The notes below the pieces were generated by a model, which was not told the DNA's origin, made no database searches, and was given only the letters and a program-made list of their open reading frames with translations. This document shows positions 2,655 to 37,157 of a DNA stretch of 42,281 nt, piece by piece. Origin of the DNA: a virus (taxonomy: Duplodnaviria > Caudoviricetes); IMG/VR virus record IMGVR_UViG_3300032212_000040, positions 1 to 42,281 of that record; one strand, given 5' to 3'. The first letter of the stretch is position 1. Each line of letters starts with the position of its first letter. A program made the position numbers and the translations under genes.

Positions 2655-3107
2655 ATGAAAGATAAAAGAGGTAAACCTCGTCGTTCAAATTCCCCCATTA
2701 GTTGTTTAAAGAAGAGGTATGTACGTGCCGTACACAAGGTTCCTACAATGGAAGCTTATTACGATTGCATGAAATACTACAGAGCTCTTAGGCGTTTAAA
2801 TACGTACAATCACCACAACACAAGGGAAGCAGCTATGGAGGCCATCTATAGCAAGGCCGAGGAAATAAAACGTATTGTGAGGGAACGTGTTATGAAGAAT
2901 TTTAAAGAGAAGCACATTGTTAAGGCCTATAAGAAGTTGTCAAAGAAAGAAGAGACAAAGCTTGTAGAAGTTTTAAAGAAAGTTATTAAAGGGAACGAGG
3001 TTCCCGGCTTCACAACAATTCCAACCTGTAAGGTGGAGGGTGCGCACACAGTGACACCTGTGTTCGATTTAAAGAATGGACGCACTTTCTGTATTAGCAA
3101 TGTCTAA
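2655..3107 (+). CDS. Basic hypothetical protein upstream of terminase, probably leaderless
   Basis: ORF 2646..3107; its first ATG overlaps the -10 box, so ATG 2655 is more plausible. Confidence 0.7.
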   Translation: MKDKRGKPRRSNSPISCLKKRYVRAVHKVPTMEAYYDCMKYYRALRRLNTYNHHNTREAAMEAIYSKAEEIKRIVRERVMKNFKEKHIVKAYKKLSKKEETKLVEVLKKVIKGNEVPGFTTIPTCKVEGAHTVTPVFDLKNGRTFCISNV

Positions 3108-3648
3108 GGACAAGCGTAAGAAGCTCGATTATGAGGTGTTTGCTATTAAAGTGGCTGAGGGAGCCACGAATATAGCAGCTTATAGAGCAGCTGGTGGAAA
3201 GTCTACAGGTGATGAAGCTAAAAAAGCATCATCTAGGCTCAGGAAGAGACCAGATGTAGATGTTATGATTAAAGATAATATTTACAAGTTGGCTATGAGT
3301 ACACAAGTGGAGCTCGTTTCTCTTGCTCCGGCAGCCTTACAAGTGAGACGTGATATATTAGAGAATAAAGAAACATTAGAGGATGGCTCACGCATCCCTA
3401 AGAATTATTCCGATAAGATGCGTAAAGATGTTTCAGATGCCGTTCTGGCAGATGTTCAGAAGATTCTCCCTAAACAAATCCAAACACAAGTGGTACATGA
3501 AGTAGGAGAGGGACTAGATGAACTCATTGAACAGCTTATCGAAGGAAGACCTTCAGAAGTTGCGAAGCTCATTGAAGGAGAAGTTGTCGAAGAATCCGGA
3601 GCTGACGAAGAAGCTTCAGGAGAGCTTGGCCCAGACAGCGACGCATAG
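3100..3648 (+). CDS. terS: Terminase small subunit
   Basis: FA..VAEG.TN.AAYRAAG...ASSRLRKRPDV is a typical TerS HTH N-terminus; lies before TerL; start could be 3076 or 3100. Confidence 0.8.
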   Translation: MSKDKRKKLDYEVFAIKVAEGATNIAAYRAAGGKSTGDEAKKASSRLRKRPDVDVMIKDNIYKLAMSTQVELVSLAPAALQVRRDILENKETLEDGSRIPKNYSDKMRKDVSDAVLADVQKILPKQIQTQVVHEVGEGLDELIEQLIEGRPSEVAKLIEGEVVEESGADEEASGELGPDSDA

Positions 3649-4972
3649 GCTCTCCCTATACGTCCCACACAAGAAACAAGCTGCATTCCATGCTGTTGGC
3701 TCCTCTCATCAGAATAGGATGTTTTTAGCTGGTAACCGTGTTGGTAAGTCTGAAGCCGGTGCAAACGAGGCAGCTATGCATTTAACAGGCATCTACCCTA
3801 AGTGGTGGAAGGGCAAACGTTTTGATAGCCCCATCCTAGCTATAGCTGCTTCTGTCACCAGTGAGACAACACGTGATATTCTACAAGTTAAATATTTAGG
3901 GTCGTTATTCCCAGAAGAGTTTGGAATAGGTACAATCCCTAAGGATTGCTTAGGCGACCACTCTAGACGACAAGGTATTGCTAACGCAATCGACACCATT
4001 AAAGTGAAGCACATCTCAGGTGGTTGGTCTACATTACAGTTTAAGAGTTATGACCAAGGACGAGCTAAGTTTCAGGGTGTAGCCCCAGACTTCATTCATT
4101 TAGATGAAGAGCCAGACATTCAGATTTATACAGAATGTAAACGTGGTACGATGACCACAGGTGGCCACATCATATTAACGATGACACCTCTTAGCGGTAT
4201 GACAGAAGTTTGTGAGTTGTTCCTTAAAGATGCAACAGGTAAGCTTAGTGTTACGACAGCTGGTTGGAATGATGCCACACACCTTACAGAAGAAGCTAAA
4301 GATGAAATGAGAGCTTCTCTCCCTCCTCACGAGATTGAGGCAAGGGAAAAGGGTATTCCCACCGTCGGTGTTGGTAAGATTTATACATTTAAACAAGAAG
4401 AGATTAGTTGTGAGCCTTTTGAACTACCTTCTTATTATCGCCTTGCTTATGGTTTGGATTTCGGGTGGAACAACACGGCAGCAGTGTGGGGAGCTTATAA
4501 CCCGGACACAGACACATGGTATGTTTACACCGAGTATAAATTGGGTCAGCTAGACCCAATAGCCCATACACAGAATATTATTCGTATTGGTGGTAAGGGT
4601 GTTAGGGGGGTTTGTGACCCCGCTGGTGGAAACAGTTCCCAAGCTGACGGTAAGAAAATACTAGAGCAGTTTCAGCACGAAGGGTTGTTCTTACAACCAG
4701 CAGACAATAGCGTTAGTGCAGGTATTAACGAAGTGTATGCCAGATTCAGAACAGGTAGGCTTAAAATATTCTCCACATGTAATGAGATTTTTAGTGAGCT
4801 TAATGTTTATGCCCGTGATAAGAAGGGTAAGGTTATTAAAAGAAACGACCACCTATTAGATGCTCTTAGGTATTTAATAATGTCAGGTGGTGAGGTTGCA
4901 AGACCTAAACATTCTAAGCTAAAGCGCATGTTTGGAAACAAACGAACAAAAACATCTTGGAAAACAGCATAA
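3518..4972 (+). CDS. terL: Terminase large subunit (P22-like)
   Basis: Walker A GNRVGKS, Walker B IHLDEE, coupling motif TMTP, nuclease GLDFG and DHLLDALRY. Confidence 0.97.
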   Translation: MNSLNSLSKEDLQKLRSSLKEKLSKNPELTKKLQESLAQTATHRLSLYVPHKKQAAFHAVGSSHQNRMFLAGNRVGKSEAGANEAAMHLTGIYPKWWKGKRFDSPILAIAASVTSETTRDILQVKYLGSLFPEEFGIGTIPKDCLGDHSRRQGIANAIDTIKVKHISGGWSTLQFKSYDQGRAKFQGVAPDFIHLDEEPDIQIYTECKRGTMTTGGHIILTMTPLSGMTEVCELFLKDATGKLSVTTAGWNDATHLTEEAKDEMRASLPPHEIEAREKGIPTVGVGKIYTFKQEEISCEPFELPSYYRLAYGLDFGWNNTAAVWGAYNPDTDTWYVYTEYKLGQLDPIAHTQNIIRIGGKGVRGVCDPAGGNSSQADGKKILEQFQHEGLFLQPADNSVSAGINEVYARFRTGRLKIFSTCNEIFSELNVYARDKKGKVIKRNDHLLDALRYLIMSGGEVARPKHSKLKRMFGNKRTKTSWKTA

Positions 4973-26715: not shown

Positions 26716-27067
26716 CTAGTTTCCTAACCCACTTCAGTACTTCACCAAACTCTTCTCTGTGTATTATATCATAACTACAAGAAGTATAAGCATTATATCC
26801 ATAAGCCGTGTAGCTCCTCACTCCTTGATCTGTTTCATATAGTTCTACTTGCACCACTTCGTGTACTCCATCATTATTTGTGGCCATTTTAATAGGAATA
26901 ATTTTAACAAGCTCTTTAGTTTTTTCTTCTTCCTCTATTTTTTCTCTATAGTACTTTACTGCATTCTCTAGACGACTAATGTCTAATCTAAGGTCTTCTT
27001 TGATAACTTGATTATAAACTAGACATAAACATAAGATAACTACTATAACTATTAGTATATACATCAC
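26708..27067 (-). CDS. Hypothetical protein with N-terminal TM helix
   Basis: ORF track; GAGGA RBS. Confidence 0.75.
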   Translation of the reverse strand: MMYILIVIVVILCLCLVYNQVIKEDLRLDISRLENAVKYYREKIEEEEKTKELVKIIPIKMATNNDGVHEVVQVELYETDQGVRSYTAYGYNAYTSCSYDIIHREEFGEVLKWVRKLDE

Positions 27068-27378
27068 TCTTCCTCCTCAAAATCTAATAACACATCCACA
27101 CCTAAGAAACGTTCAACATCTGTCTCTTCTATGTCTTGTAACACTTCATCTAATTCAGCATCCCCAATCATACCAATGTTGTATGAAGCCCTAGCAGCTG
27201 CTTGATTTAGTATTTTCCACCAAGAGGGGTCTTGTTGTGGTAGTTCCCCTAACATTATAGCTAGCTCTTCTACAGTGCCCTCTAGGCTTGTCGTAACCGT
27301 CACTGTTGACGGGTTGTTTCTCTCCATAGCAGCATCCACCATTAGATGAGCATATTTATCTCCACCATCATAACACAT
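27064..27378 (-). CDS. Hypothetical acidic protein
   Basis: ORF track; GAGGAG RBS. Confidence 0.75.
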   Translation of the reverse strand: MCYDGGDKYAHLMVDAAMERNNPSTVTVTTSLEGTVEELAIMLGELPQQDPSWWKILNQAAARASYNIGMIGDAELDEVLQDIEETDVERFLGVDVLLDFEEEE

Positions 27379-32933: not shown

Positions 32934-34172
32934 TTATTCCTCTATCCATGTACATGTCATAGGTTCTAAATAAGCTACAAACTGCCCTTTAGGACCTTTA
33001 TTCTTACATATGTTAAAATAACGCTTATATGCTTGTATAAGCTGCCCTTCTTTATTTTGAACACTAACTAACAGGTCTTCTTTATCCATCCCCATCCCTA
33101 TAATAGTTCTGAATGCTCCCGGAACACCTGTCTTACTATAATCAATGTTCTCTATACCCACCCACTTACCAGCAGTTGCATCAGCCTGAGTTGCACATAA
33201 ATAGTGGTGATTATATTTCTTAGACAACCCTTTAATCTCTTTAACAATTTCTGTACGCATCTCTGTTTGGCTGTTGTGCTTCATTCTAATATTCTGGTAT
33301 TGGTCGTATATAACCAAATCTGGTGATGTTAGTTTTATTAAGTTCTCAATATCTGCAATATGGAGAGCCCCTCCATTATAGGTACACAACACATCCTCTG
33401 GGTTTACAACACCATAAGATAGATTAAAATCCCCCATAAACTTCTGCTCGTAGTGAGCTTGGTTAGACAATATAGTTGCTTCATCTACTTTGAAATAGCT
33501 GTTTAGGTAACGGATGATGAGGTCTGATCTACCATCCTCATCAATACATAAATGTAATACACGTTTACCAGATTTAAGCATCTTAACAACCTGCGGTACA
33601 ATCCACGACGTTTTACCTCCATCGGTTCTAGCTACAAACAGAGTACCCACTCCGCAGCGTAATCCTTTAACTTTCTCCTCCATTTGATCTAAGTGCCACT
33701 CACCTACACTACCGCTTTCATCAAGAGCCTCTCCAAGGCTCATAGATGTTAGCATAGTTTCTTCTGTGCCAGACTCCAGCTCTCTAAGTTCGGCTATTAA
33801 GTCAGCCAAGGTGTCTGTGTTCTCTCCGTCTTCTGATGCATCAGACAGCTTGAAACGAATAGCATTCTCTAACACGTGTTTGAAGAACACGTCTGTTGAT
33901 TCACCAAGCTCCATTTTATACATTTCTTTGTATGTTTCTAGGAGCTTCTCCTGTTGCTTTTCACTCTGTCCCATGAATGTTTCTTTATGTGTAGCGTACA
34001 AAAGCTTCAGGGGGACGTCTGAGGATGTCTCAGCATGTAATGTACGTAGCATATTTAATGCTTTAAACAACAGAGAACGTTTACCATTGTCAAAATGAGA
34101 CACATTAATATATTCATTGTATTTATTAAACGCTTCTTTTGTTAGAAGCTGTAGAATTATTTCTTTTTCCAT
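32934..34172 (-). CDS. DnaB-like (SF4) replicative helicase
   Basis: ARTDGGKTS Walker A, VIYDQ, ATQ, SKTG and KNKG motifs. Confidence 0.88.
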   Translation of the reverse strand: MEKEIILQLLTKEAFNKYNEYINVSHFDNGKRSLLFKALNMLRTLHAETSSDVPLKLLYATHKETFMGQSEKQQEKLLETYKEMYKMELGESTDVFFKHVLENAIRFKLSDASEDGENTDTLADLIAELRELESGTEETMLTSMSLGEALDESGSVGEWHLDQMEEKVKGLRCGVGTLFVARTDGGKTSWIVPQVVKMLKSGKRVLHLCIDEDGRSDLIIRYLNSYFKVDEATILSNQAHYEQKFMGDFNLSYGVVNPEDVLCTYNGGALHIADIENLIKLTSPDLVIYDQYQNIRMKHNSQTEMRTEIVKEIKGLSKKYNHHYLCATQADATAGKWVGIENIDYSKTGVPGAFRTIIGMGMDKEDLLVSVQNKEGQLIQAYKRYFNICKNKGPKGQFVAYLEPMTCTWIEE

Positions 34173-34373: not shown

Positions 34374-34534
34374 CAGTAGTCTCCTCTATCTATGTCTATG
34401 TTAATCTCTGAGGCTAATTCTTCATTAGCTTCTCGCTTCATACTCTCTGCACACCACGTATGTACAAACTCTCCGAAGTAGTATTCTTCTGCGTCTGCTT
34501 CCATCAGTGGTTCTCCACAATATTCACATATCAT
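34373..34534 (-). CDS. Small zinc-finger-like protein (53 aa, CEYC...HTWC), absent from the ORF track
   Basis: Manual translation; GAGGAG RBS; ATGA and TGATG coupling at both ends. Confidence 0.75.
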   Translation of the reverse strand: MICEYCGEPLMEADAEEYYFGEFVHTWCAESMKREANEELASEINIDIDRGDY

Positions 34535-35433
34535 TTCTCTAACTCCTCTTTACTTAAATAACGTGGCTTCTTATCGAATTGTTTAACTGTAACATGAAGC
34601 CCTTCATTTGTCAACTTCCTTTTAATCTTTTTTATTGTACTCCTAGCAACACCCATATCTGGGATGAACACAACATTAGTGCTCTGTAGCTTTCGGGAAC
34701 ATGACAAAATATTCGCAAGTTTTGTCTCCGTCAAGCTCAGACCCATCAACGCACACGTGGCTAACCCTTTTTCCCCTAAAGAAATTGCTGAGGTTGGTGC
34801 TTCCACGATATACAATGTCATCTTCTGCTCTCTTAGCCACTCTGTCGAACTCTCTGCTATCAATATGTTCGTGAATATTGCACCATCTGACGTCATATTT
34901 ACCCATTTTCTTCCTCCAGTTCTTTGAATAAGTCGGCTAACATACCCATCCATCTGTTGGTGTCTTGGTAGAGGGATGATAAGTCTTCCGTTAGCTGCGT
35001 CCCAACGCATGTCATAATCTGTGAACGCTGCTTGGCTGATGTTGTTTGCTTCAAGATACGCTCCACACTGTCTGGGACACCATCGTATAGCAGTTGGAGG
35101 AATAAGAAGGCGGACACTAGCTTCCTGTTCTTTATTCTCCACACCATGTCGAACTGGGACTCCAGAAGAAACTCCCCTTCCTCTAATTCCTTTGCTTCCT
35201 TCTCCGTTTTCAACACGTCCTCTACATTGACAAGCATCTGAGAAACAGTTGTATTTAATAACATCTCCATCTCTTCGAACCCCAAGCTCACACGAGCTAG
35301 GTGTCTCTCCACCGATTGCAGAGCGATAACATCTCTCGCCAACACTGCCGTGTGCCACGTCTCCATCATTTCTAACGTCGTCACTAAATGTGTCATATAT
35401 CCATTCCTCTTTACTATTACGTTTATTTCTCAT
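34531..35433 (-). CDS. DNA primase (Zn-binding plus TOPRIM)
   Basis: YNCFSDAC Zn motif, YL....I, RLIIP, R....KW, IVEAPTSA, ALMG, FIPD; upstream of the helicase. Confidence 0.8.
   Translation of the reverse strand: MRNKRNSKEEWIYDTFSDDVRNDGDVAHGSVGERCYRSAIGGETPSSCELGVRRDGDVIKYNCFSDACQCRGRVENGEGSKGIRGRGVSSGVPVRHGVENKEQEASVRLLIPPTAIRWCPRQCGAYLEANNISQAAFTDYDMRWDAANGRLIIPLPRHQQMDGYVSRLIQRTGGRKWVNMTSDGAIFTNILIAESSTEWLREQKMTLYIVEAPTSAISLGEKGLATCALMGLSLTETKLANILSCSRKLQSTNVVFIPDMGVARSTIKKIKRKLTNEGLHVTVKQFDKKPRYLSKEELEK
34586..34614 (-). promoter_or_regulatory. Candidate internal promoter in the primase 3' end
   Basis: TTGACA-17 nt-TACAGT with extended TG; palindrome ATGAAG-NN-CTTCAT in the spacer. 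Confidence 0.5.
34676..34906 (-). CDS. Overprinted gene B (76 aa) in the +2 frame of primase
   Basis: GGAGG RBS 7 nt before ATG; start overlaps the end of gene A. Confidence 0.55.
   Translation of the reverse strand: MGKYDVRWCNIHEHIDSREFDRVAKRAEDDIVYRGSTNLSNFFRGKRVSHVCVDGSELDGDKTCEYFVMFPKATEH
34899..35396 (-). CDS. Overprinted gene A (165 aa, acidic helical) in the +1 frame of primase
   Basis: AGAGGA RBS 8 nt before ATG; 165 open codons; protein-like composition. Confidence 0.65.
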   Translation of the reverse strand: MTHLVTTLEMMETWHTAVLARDVIALQSVERHLARVSLGFEEMEMLLNTTVSQMLVNVEDVLKTEKEAKELEEGEFLLESQFDMVWRIKNRKLVSAFLFLQLLYDGVPDSVERILKQTTSAKQRSQIMTCVGTQLTEDLSSLYQDTNRWMGMLADLFKELEEENG

Positions 35434-35755
35434 ACACTGTTTTAAGTTCTAAGCAGTTGTGTTTGTTGTCGTAATCAAACACATAAACTAATTTGTTGTA
35501 AACAAATTTATTAACACAACCTTTATACAACTCACCTTTCTCTAATGCCTGAACACCTCTAATACCTAACATCCATTTAGCATGAGCAGGTCTAATCTCT
35601 AATCCTCTAGGTGCGCACCACCTTTGGTGTAGCCTAAGAATAGTGTGTCCACAAACCCTTATCCTATGGTTTTTATTGCCGTAGAACACTGTTGGGTGAG
35701 GGGCTCCTATTCTCCACCTAAGTATTTTCTTAACTGGGTTTAATTGCTCGCCCAT
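35423..35755 (-). CDS. Hypothetical basic protein
   Basis: ORF track; GAGGTG RBS. Confidence 0.7.
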   Translation of the reverse strand: MGEQLNPVKKILRWRIGAPHPTVFYGNKNHRIRVCGHTILRLHQRWCAPRGLEIRPAHAKWMLGIRGVQALEKGELYKGCVNKFVYNKLVYVFDYDNKHNCLELKTVYEK

Positions 35756-36265: not shown

Positions 36266-36294
36266 AATGTACATATTTAAAAAGCATCTGTCAA
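36266..36294 (-). promoter_or_regulatory. sigma70-like promoter of the replication operon
   Basis: TTGACA-17 nt-TACATT. Confidence 0.7.
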
Positions 36295-36577
36295 GAGGTT
36301 TTTTAATATTTATTTAAATTAAATGATAACTAATTGATTTCCCTAAAGAAATCATAATAGCATGTAGCCCGAAATTCGTTAAGAATTGAAGGGCTACTAA
36401 TATACAATATTCTTATCAATATTATAATGTCCTGAAAGGACATAATTATAGCGAGTAGTGATAACTATTGTTAATTAAATAATAAGAGCCGTTGGGCGGC
36501 TCTATTTAATGTTATTGTTAGGATGACTACACAACACTGTCGTGTTGTTAGTTATACTAACTAACCTAGTAATAGTT

Positions 36578-36606
36578 AAAATAGCATATTTTTAGAAATA
36601 AGTCAA
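36578..36606 (-). promoter_or_regulatory. sigma70-like promoter firing into the hairpin cluster
   Basis: TTGACT-17 nt-TATTTT with extended TG. Confidence 0.6.
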
Positions 36607-36652
36607 GAAAAAACGTACACTAAAATAAAATTAATTATTTTAAACTTTTCAC

Positions 36653-36681
36653 TTGACAAATCTGTCATTAACACCTATACT
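36653..36681 (+). promoter_or_regulatory. sigma70 promoter for the candidate ncRNA
   Basis: TTGACA-17 nt-TATACT. Confidence 0.8.
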
Positions 36682-36689
36682 TATTAATA

Positions 36690-36846
36690 GTGGTGGTGGC
36701 AAGTGCAGTATTATCAGCCAGCGGGTTCAATTCCTGCATCGTGTCCGTGAGACGGTTGGCTGTTGTTTTAACTGGCTACGGCGGTTTTAACAAACTCTAC
36801 TACGAGGCCAAGGAAGTAGCGCAGGATTAACGCCCTGCCCATCACT
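36690..36846 (+). ncRNA. Candidate structured tRNA-like ncRNA
   Basis: 7-bp end-closing stem stacked on a 5-bp arm, internal T-loop arm, cUACGg tetraloop; promoter upstream, T-tract downstream. Confidence 0.55.
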
Positions 36847-36905
36847 AAATAATAGAGGTTTTTTTTTATTTCCTTTTTCCCTCTATTAACACACGAGCGA
36901 GCGTG

Positions 36906-36932
36906 AAAAGAGCCTCTGTAAAGGCTCTTTTT
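36906..36932 (+). terminator. Intrinsic (possibly bidirectional) terminator
   Basis: AAAAGAGCCT-CTGTAA-AGGCTCTTTTT. Confidence 0.75.
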
Positions 36933-36934
36933 GC

Positions 36935-36963
36935 TTGACAAATAGATAAAAGTGTGATAGAAT
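36935..36963 (+). promoter_or_regulatory. sigma70 promoter for the tRNA
   Basis: TTGACA-17 nt-TAGAAT with extended TG. Confidence 0.85.
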
Positions 36964-37001
36964 GTACGTATTAACAAGAAACATTATTTAACATTTAACA
37001 T

Positions 37002-37075
37002 GCACCCGTAGCTTAGTGGTAGAGCGTTCCCTTACAAAGGGAAAGACGTTGGTTCGAGTCCAACTGGGAGCACCA
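37002..37075 (+). tRNA. tRNA with anticodon ACA (nominally Cys; identity uncertain)
   Basis: Complete cloverleaf: D arm GCTT/GAGC, anticodon stem TTCCC/GGGAA with loop TTACAAA, T arm GTTGG-TTCGAGT-CCAAC, encoded ACCA. Confidence 0.88.
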
Positions 37076-37157
37076 AACACTGCGTGTTTGTTTCTTATGA
37101 AATAAGACGCACCAATTTACTTGTAAATCTAACCAAACATTGTTTTCGGAGAAAATA

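Follow-up and report, generated by a model that had tools for sequence, protein, structure and literature searches.

Can the gene of a small phage primase carry two further proteins in its alternative reading frames? The question is raised by one locus of the window, by which we mean the whole virus record of 42,281 bases, where terminase, portal and capsid are encoded on the plus strand and polymerase A, a DnaB-like helicase and nucleases on the minus strand, the replication proteins sharing about 25% identity with those of cultured podoviruses. The first-pass annotation had described a two-gene operon overprinted inside the primase, and its ORF coordinates, frames and lengths, the joint coverage of 721 of the 903 nt of the primase gene, and the coupled-type overlap of both ORFs, which is 8 nt long, were all recovered on re-derivation. 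Our reading is that this podovirus-like phage probably has a primase gene with two extra frames in tandem, of which one (ORF A) is very likely real and the other (ORF B) possibly so, and that both would be made in excess of the primase. The elements of the locus, in the direction of transcription, are the following.

35423..35755, minus strand: 110-aa gene upstream of the primase, with a strong Shine-Dalgarno (SD) sequence (ORF list, anti-SD pairing)
34531..35433, minus strand: stand-alone DnaG-type primase of 300 aa (homologs, structure model, fold search)
35405..35410, minus strand: SD-like AGAGGA of ORF A, 8-nt spacer (sequence, anti-SD pairing)
34899..35396, minus strand: ORF A, +1 frame, 165 aa (open frame, shuffles, codon usage, relatives' proteins)
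34913..34917, minus strand: SD-like GGAGG of ORF B, 6-nt spacer (sequence, anti-SD pairing)
34676..34906, minus strand: ORF B, +2 frame, 76 aa, a possible gene coupled to the stop of A (open frame, shuffles, codon usage)
32934..34172, minus strand: separate DnaB-like helicase downstream of the primase (phrog_19, E 2e-16)

The primase locus was found, with zero differences, in a single contig of public run X1, labelled as a microbial mat metagenome and possibly the sample from which the record derives; no RNA run with the locus was found. Upstream of the replication genes, the window contains divergent sigma-70-like promoters (36266-37090, 11/12 matches) and a two-way terminator-like hairpin (36485-36503). 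A further overlap is found at 3076-3648 (plus strand), where a 190-aa terminase-small-like gene with an acidic tail runs 131 nt into the start of the large terminase (3518-4972).

With its last 11 nt the upstream 110-aa gene runs over the primase ATG; it is the likely source of coupled primase initiation. The ATG of A is located 37 nt inside the primase start and is led by an SD, the AGAGGA reported 8 nt before it being borne out in the sequence and encoded within the primase codons of the K9-E10-E11 region. The ATG of B lies 8 nt ahead of the end of A, and its GGAGG, placed in the acidic tail of A and in a Gly-Gly-Arg-Lys-Trp stretch of the primase, is separated from it by 6 nt and not by the 7 nt originally given. 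Anti-SD pairing energies are -6.0 kcal/mol for A, -9.3 for B and -0.1 for the primase, while among 645 internal ATGs 10.2% reach -6 and 2.2% reach -9 kcal/mol. The absence of an SD at the primase start, claimed from the outset, is thus confirmed, but not as a peculiarity of this gene, several other starts of the window being weaker than -2. Start-site folding, compared among the primase, A and B, showed no difference.

The primase itself is conserved. A profile search retrieved 23 relatives of 26-38% identity, to which a second search added one, and in the alignment four cysteines, R167, K176-W177, E211 and D259 are fully or nearly conserved. The cysteines (C35, C48, C63 and C68), each kept in at least 90% of 24 rows, form the predicted zinc site of a Cys-ligand zinc-binding domain. 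In the structure model (pLDDT 84) this domain, at about residues 8-70, is followed by a disordered linker (74-107) and an RNA-polymerase/TOPRIM domain. A Foldseek search with the model gave Aquifex DnaG 2au3 (E 3.7e-7) among 26 PDB matches at E<=0.001, as well as small phage primases; the Pfam Toprim_2 match stayed below the cut-off. E211 and D259 are invariant, and position 261 is Gly in the window and in one relative (P0024) and Asp in 22/24 rows, so that the TOPRIM DxD, outside the A and B overlaps, reads D-M-G at 34651-34659 (minus strand, residues 259-261). Cellular DnaG carries a helical C-terminal helicase-binding domain; the model indicates that the window primase, with its 300 aa, ends after the TOPRIM core and does not have it. 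Given the relatives of the primase and the match of its model to the cores of DnaG and to small primases of phages, frame 0 is the older gene. A covers the zinc domain and the linker and extends over the first part of the catalytic domain, and beneath B the window primase has about 10 additional residues in a low-confidence loop.

The lengths of both frames, for which a codon-shuffle test had been proposed, exceeded expectation under three nulls of 20,000 sequences each, namely codon permutation, synonymous shuffle of the gene's own codons and resampling from genome usage. The +1 stop-free run of 176 codons (primase codons 1-176) was reached in 3, 5 and 0 cases, the +2 run of 86 codons in 10, 80 and 50, and both runs jointly in none of the 20,000 under any null. 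Repeat shuffles in two tests gave 0 and 0 of 3000 for the +1 and 4 and 13 of 3000 for the +2 run, and in none of the 39 other listed ORFs of the window does a run exceed 82 (+1) or 63 (+2) codons. At 27064-27378 (minus strand) there is a +2 run of 54 codons, reached in 6/1000 permutations and probably due to chance among 74 tests. The permutation and synonymous tests follow those described in the available part of PMC6188560, which puts the false discovery rate of the permutation test on single RNA-virus genomes at 0.16 for p 0.001 and at 0.40 for p 0.01; because of the former value, length alone is not proof of a gene. Stops at sites where a synonymous change could create them, counted in regions chosen after the runs were known, occur in the +1 frame at 0/23 sites within A and at 14/24 beyond it, and in the +2 frame at 0/23 sites in the run of B, 21/56 before it and 6/15 in the tail.

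Codon usage points in the same direction for A, whose score of -0.068 is above that of all 511 overlapping shifted-frame windows (maximum -0.183), a value midway between those of ordinary genes and of shifted frames. Over A, the primase codons score -0.108, below every ordinary gene (minimum 0.195). The score of B was reached by 10/776 windows, and the primase codons over it score -0.186, the ordinary genes having a mean of 0.63 (sd 0.21). The Gly/Arg/Ser-rich composition of the primase N-half, which had been taken as a mark of dual coding, is present (G/R/C/S 35% over A, 15% in the tail) but carries less weight than claimed. The primase of StenR_269 has 37% of these residues yet no long +1 ORF, its longest +1 run being 38 codons, and composition was consequently rejected as proof of dual coding.

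The description of A as an acidic helical protein stands: it has a pI of 4.7, is Pro-poor, predicted all-helical and amphipathic, and lacks a membrane segment. Its helical moment was reached by 15/2000 residue shuffles and 5/1500 synonymous shuffles. Judged from its predicted properties, the +1 frame very likely yields a soluble helical protein. No family above threshold was found for A by word search or in PHROGs, NCBIfam and PADLOC, Pfam gave nothing but sub-threshold helical matches, and tblastn against 50,697 phage records gave no match at E<=1. Dynein matches in the Atlas were rejected for low recognition, and the single-sequence structure model (pLDDT 44) was too poor for a fold search. 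Of the two hidden proteins put forward at first, A is well supported by shuffles, codon usage and relatives, and B is plausible but unproven. We regard A, with considerable confidence, as a real overprinted gene.

The conservation of A is judged from proteins, as no DNA of close relatives was found: the search for DNA of family members gave none in viral contigs, only the window's own contig in the metagenome scan and a single 44-residue partial match in the genome scan. The 33 loci from the viral-contig scans are distant primases, whose longest second frame is at most 67 codons, apart from an unrelated one of 969 aa (L006). The most informative protein is a database record, P0013, a frameshift chimera in which the hidden +1 ORF is fused to the primase core. 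Its first ~70 residues align to A with 34% identity over 68 positions, and its start is a +1 reading of the primase zinc domain, 51/71 positions being compatible with the relative P0002 (shuffles, maximum 33). The +1-read stretch is stop-free, which would occur by chance in about 5%. P0013 and A are identical at 16/43 positions, where 10.3 +/- 2.1 are expected and 47/6135 nulls reach 16, in a comparison built on one record and with P0002, 49% identical in the shared part, standing in for its hidden frame; P0013 is hence nearer to A than the conservation of the primase would lead one to expect. The fusion more likely arose from an indel in that record; a programmed frameshift linking A with the primase core, as P0013 might imply, was rejected, there being no slippery heptamer inside A.

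A second trace is seen at the start. The residue ahead of the conserved N-terminal E/D/G is H, N, Y or D in 14/23 relatives (N 6, H 4, Y 3, D 1), a set that excludes the window and P0013 and whose rows are related to one another. These four unlike residues share xAT among their codons, and so could spell a shared +1 ATG. Against a background of 12.7% for H/N/Y/D before E/D the column has a p of 1.6e-7, although it was noticed post hoc and the ATG requires xAT and not xAC codons at a column read from protein. A +1 ATG is possible within residues 2-13 in 20/23 relatives (random windows, mean 10.4, maximum 18); in the window the +1 start lies at codon 13 instead, and the region of the conserved Glu spells the SD. 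Met is scarce in the family N-halves (17/3603 versus 60/4182 in outgroup N-halves), and the pairs that force a +1 stop (Met followed by I, M, T, N or K) are 0/17 in the family and 16/60 in the outgroup (p 0.011), which comprises 27 mostly AT-rich rows, 14 of them viral-contig loci; DES1 was left out, as were nine cultured rows in which a second frame is long. The comparison of forced +1 stops in the family N-half with its own C-half gave only p 0.066. Taken at the protein level, A appears to be conserved across the primase family, with its ATG usually a few codons behind the primase start. In the tree the family forms a clade of weak support (84/84, 15/25 rows), which falls together with DES1, Zobellviridae and HMO-2011 in a group whose branching is not resolved.

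Among 24 cultured small-primase records, six, from four lineages, pass both tests at p 0.01 (DES1, Oiolarie, Paso, R8W, H4/4 and RHEph02), and the remaining 18, VpV262, HMO-2011 and 16 others, show no second frame at that level. In Xanthomonas phage DES1 (OK624832.1, L041:486-906) the primase N-half is overlapped by a +1 ORF of 133 aa that the record does not annotate, with a run of 134 codons from codon 0 that was reached in 2 and 4 of 3000 in the two tests. A single SD (-10.8) precedes a primase-frame ATT and the +1 ATG, 4 nt apart. From the upstream stop to the conserved first helix the primase frame has no ATG, GTG or TTG, only ATA and ATT, and the annotated TTG start truncates that helix; the primase start appears to be the ATT, an arrangement that would fit the idea of primase throttling. 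DES1 resembles the window in its related small primase (hhalign E 2e-22) and in a Leu-rich +1 ORF that covers the N-half from the primase start; it differs in that the protein is basic (pI 9.2, against 4.7 for A) and of 133 aa, and in the absence of a +2 ORF. No alignment is obtained between A and the DES1 protein (E 34), whose helical moment is not in excess (reached by 1496/2000). Its sister in the tree, StenR_269 (97/94), has no such ORF. The lack of a match to A, the opposite charge and this sister indicate that the DES1 ORF may be of independent origin. The Vibrio phage 'coil containing proteins' found under the DES1 match were discarded, as their genes lie upstream and are not nested.

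In the other lineages the second ORFs are located mid-gene or in the C-half, with no clear synonymous suppression. Oiolarie, RHph_Y48 and Paso (L003:2652-3056, L004 and L051) have a +1 ORF of 134-140 codons at the same site of the primase C-half, preceded by an SD of about -7 and open despite 54-63% third-position change; this change, 0.54-0.63 inside and 0.39-0.72 outside the ORF, is not lower inside. Oiolarie passes the tests in +2 too. The Alteromonas phages R8W (L059:601-1380) and H4/4 (L061:601-1383) have mid-primase +1 runs of 152 and 143 codons, with an ATG in common and 0/3000 in both tests, and in their relatives K437 and PhPV1.2 the ORF is absent. In Rhizobium phage RHEph02 (L053:19-1233) a 404-codon ORF, unannotated at that length, starts upstream and crosses 269 primase codons in +2.

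The arrangement of the signals suggests how one message could yield little primase and much A. Ribosomes finishing the upstream gene would restart at the SD-less primase ATG, fresh ribosomes would load at the SD of A, 23 nt further in, and those finishing A would restart at B, so that A and B would be made in excess of the weakly started primase. Such an excess, a throttling of the primase and a role as loader, regulator or anti-defence factor, all put forward in the first-pass annotation, are conjectural. As to function, the primase without the helical helicase-binding domain of DnaG suggests a replisome accessory, and A is tentatively viewed as a replication accessory or adapter beside the primase; our guess is that host takeover by A is nearly as likely. 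A broader picture, which we consider unlikely, is of an ancient phage family in which both folded halves of the primase, zinc-binding and catalytic, are double-coded. One ribosome-binding region would serve a weak start for the primase and, a few bases off, a strong one in +1, supplying in fixed ratio the primase and a helical adapter that replaces the helicase-binding domain of DnaG in trans, with a third tandem protein added in this phage.

B is less certain than A, and the chance that it is a real overprinted gene is set only slightly above even. A being a real gene, B could be its by-product, a view whose probability falls somewhat short of one half and in which the ATG comes from Lys-Trp, the SD from the tail of A, and a locally G-rich third position (38% G in the primase over B, against 16%) keeps the frame open. 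The ATG is an automatic product of the conserved Lys-Trp (AAA TGG), a pair also found in the primases of HMO-2011, CRP-2, Xp10, Stm18 and L007, which have no overlap or long second frame, and the acidic tail of A spells the SD; both signals could be by-products. The frame is longer than both tests expect (p 0.0005-0.004, uncorrected), and its p fails correction over ~76 gene-frame tests (0.004 x 76). B is hydrophilic, has no helical-moment excess (reached by 525/2000 shuffles), no homolog in PHROG or Pfam searches and no usable Atlas match, and the family proteins, forcing no +2 stops, are uninformative on its frame. A by-product would hardly explain the lack of stops at all 23 possible sites, where ~38% is seen elsewhere, nor the atypical primase codons over B, nor the extra loop residues beneath it. 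It is very unlikely that both frames are shadows of a Gly/Arg/Cys/Ser-rich, Met/Leu-poor zinc-domain half with few stops by chance. StenR_269 does show the same composition without an overlap, and false discovery rates of 0.16-0.40 apply to single RNA-virus genomes in the part of PMC6188560 cited above, but composition-keeping shuffles fail to give such runs, StenR_269 itself does not exceed 38 codons, and neither P0013 nor the start-codon column depends on composition.

Accepting A as a gene, its product, and that of B, may be host-directed, for takeover or counter-defence, the primase gene just providing early-middle expression and a tolerant sequence. Overprinted viral genes are often accessory, and the differing sites of the second frames across four lineages (6/24 records) speak against one fixed replisome role; apparent retention at 20-50% primase identity is long for a counter-defence gene, and we hold this role to be rather unlikely. 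PADLOC, PHROG and NCBIfam gave no match deciding between the replisome and the host. It is very unlikely that the second frames act as translated RNA only, diverting ribosomes to keep the primase low and producing functionless peptides. The SD-less primase start near an SD-led +1 start, the ATT and ATG of DES1 behind one SD, and the Oiolarie, RHph_Y48 and Paso ORF that is open without reduced third-position change would agree with it. However, a short decoy ORF would be enough for that purpose, and the 165 codons of A, its excess amphipathicity and the P0013 identity, higher than primase conservation would give, suggest that the protein itself is under selection.

In dsDNA phages it is rare for the folded domains of an essential enzyme to be overlapped over a long stretch, and such overlaps are dropped by gene callers. 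Were A real family-wide, all protein collections would lack a conserved phage protein of 130-170 aa, and the DES1 primase would carry a mis-annotated start. Small phage primases appear to be a recurrent site of nested genes, which makes the role of T7-type 4.1 and 4.2 testable in several cultured phages, and the nested arrangement would be a compact means to keep the primase scarce.

The window primase resembles DnaG (Aquifex 2au3) and the primases of ICP2, VpV262 and HMO-2011 in its zinc domain, linker and RNA-polymerase/TOPRIM core, and differs from the DnaG types in lacking the C-terminal helicase-binding domain and in the Gly that replaces the second Asp of DxD. Translation of embedded out-of-frame ORFs in a dsDNA phage is documented by mass spectrometry for mycobacteriophage Patience, according to the accessible part of PMC4324244, which places those ORFs outside the primase and describes them as generally not conserved. 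In the open-access main-text literature searched, no account of the overlap in the primase family or in DES1 was found, and the word 'overlap' is absent from the available portion of PMC10747016. T7 genes 4.1 and 4.2, nested in the gene 4 primase-helicase, are the precedent for nested genes in a primase gene; like 19.2/19.3 in the terminase gene, they are annotated as same-strand hypothetical genes (NC_001604), and homologs are tabulated in the accessible part of PMC4925675. By coordinates all four T7 ORFs are in +1 and they are not coupled to each other. A and B match no T7 family among the PHROGs, and homology to gp4.1 or gp4.2 was not seen, with no PHROG family at E<=0.01 and, for A, no tblastn match at E<=1 in the 50,697 phage records. 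T7 4.1 is like A in its +1 frame and its N-terminal position, starting 70 nt into 4A, but has only 40 aa. In the window, by comparison with T7, the primase is stand-alone, 80% of it is overlapped, and the +1 and +2 frames follow each other in tandem; the extent of the overlap, the use of both frames in tandem, the folded domains overlapped and the family-wide depth are what is new.
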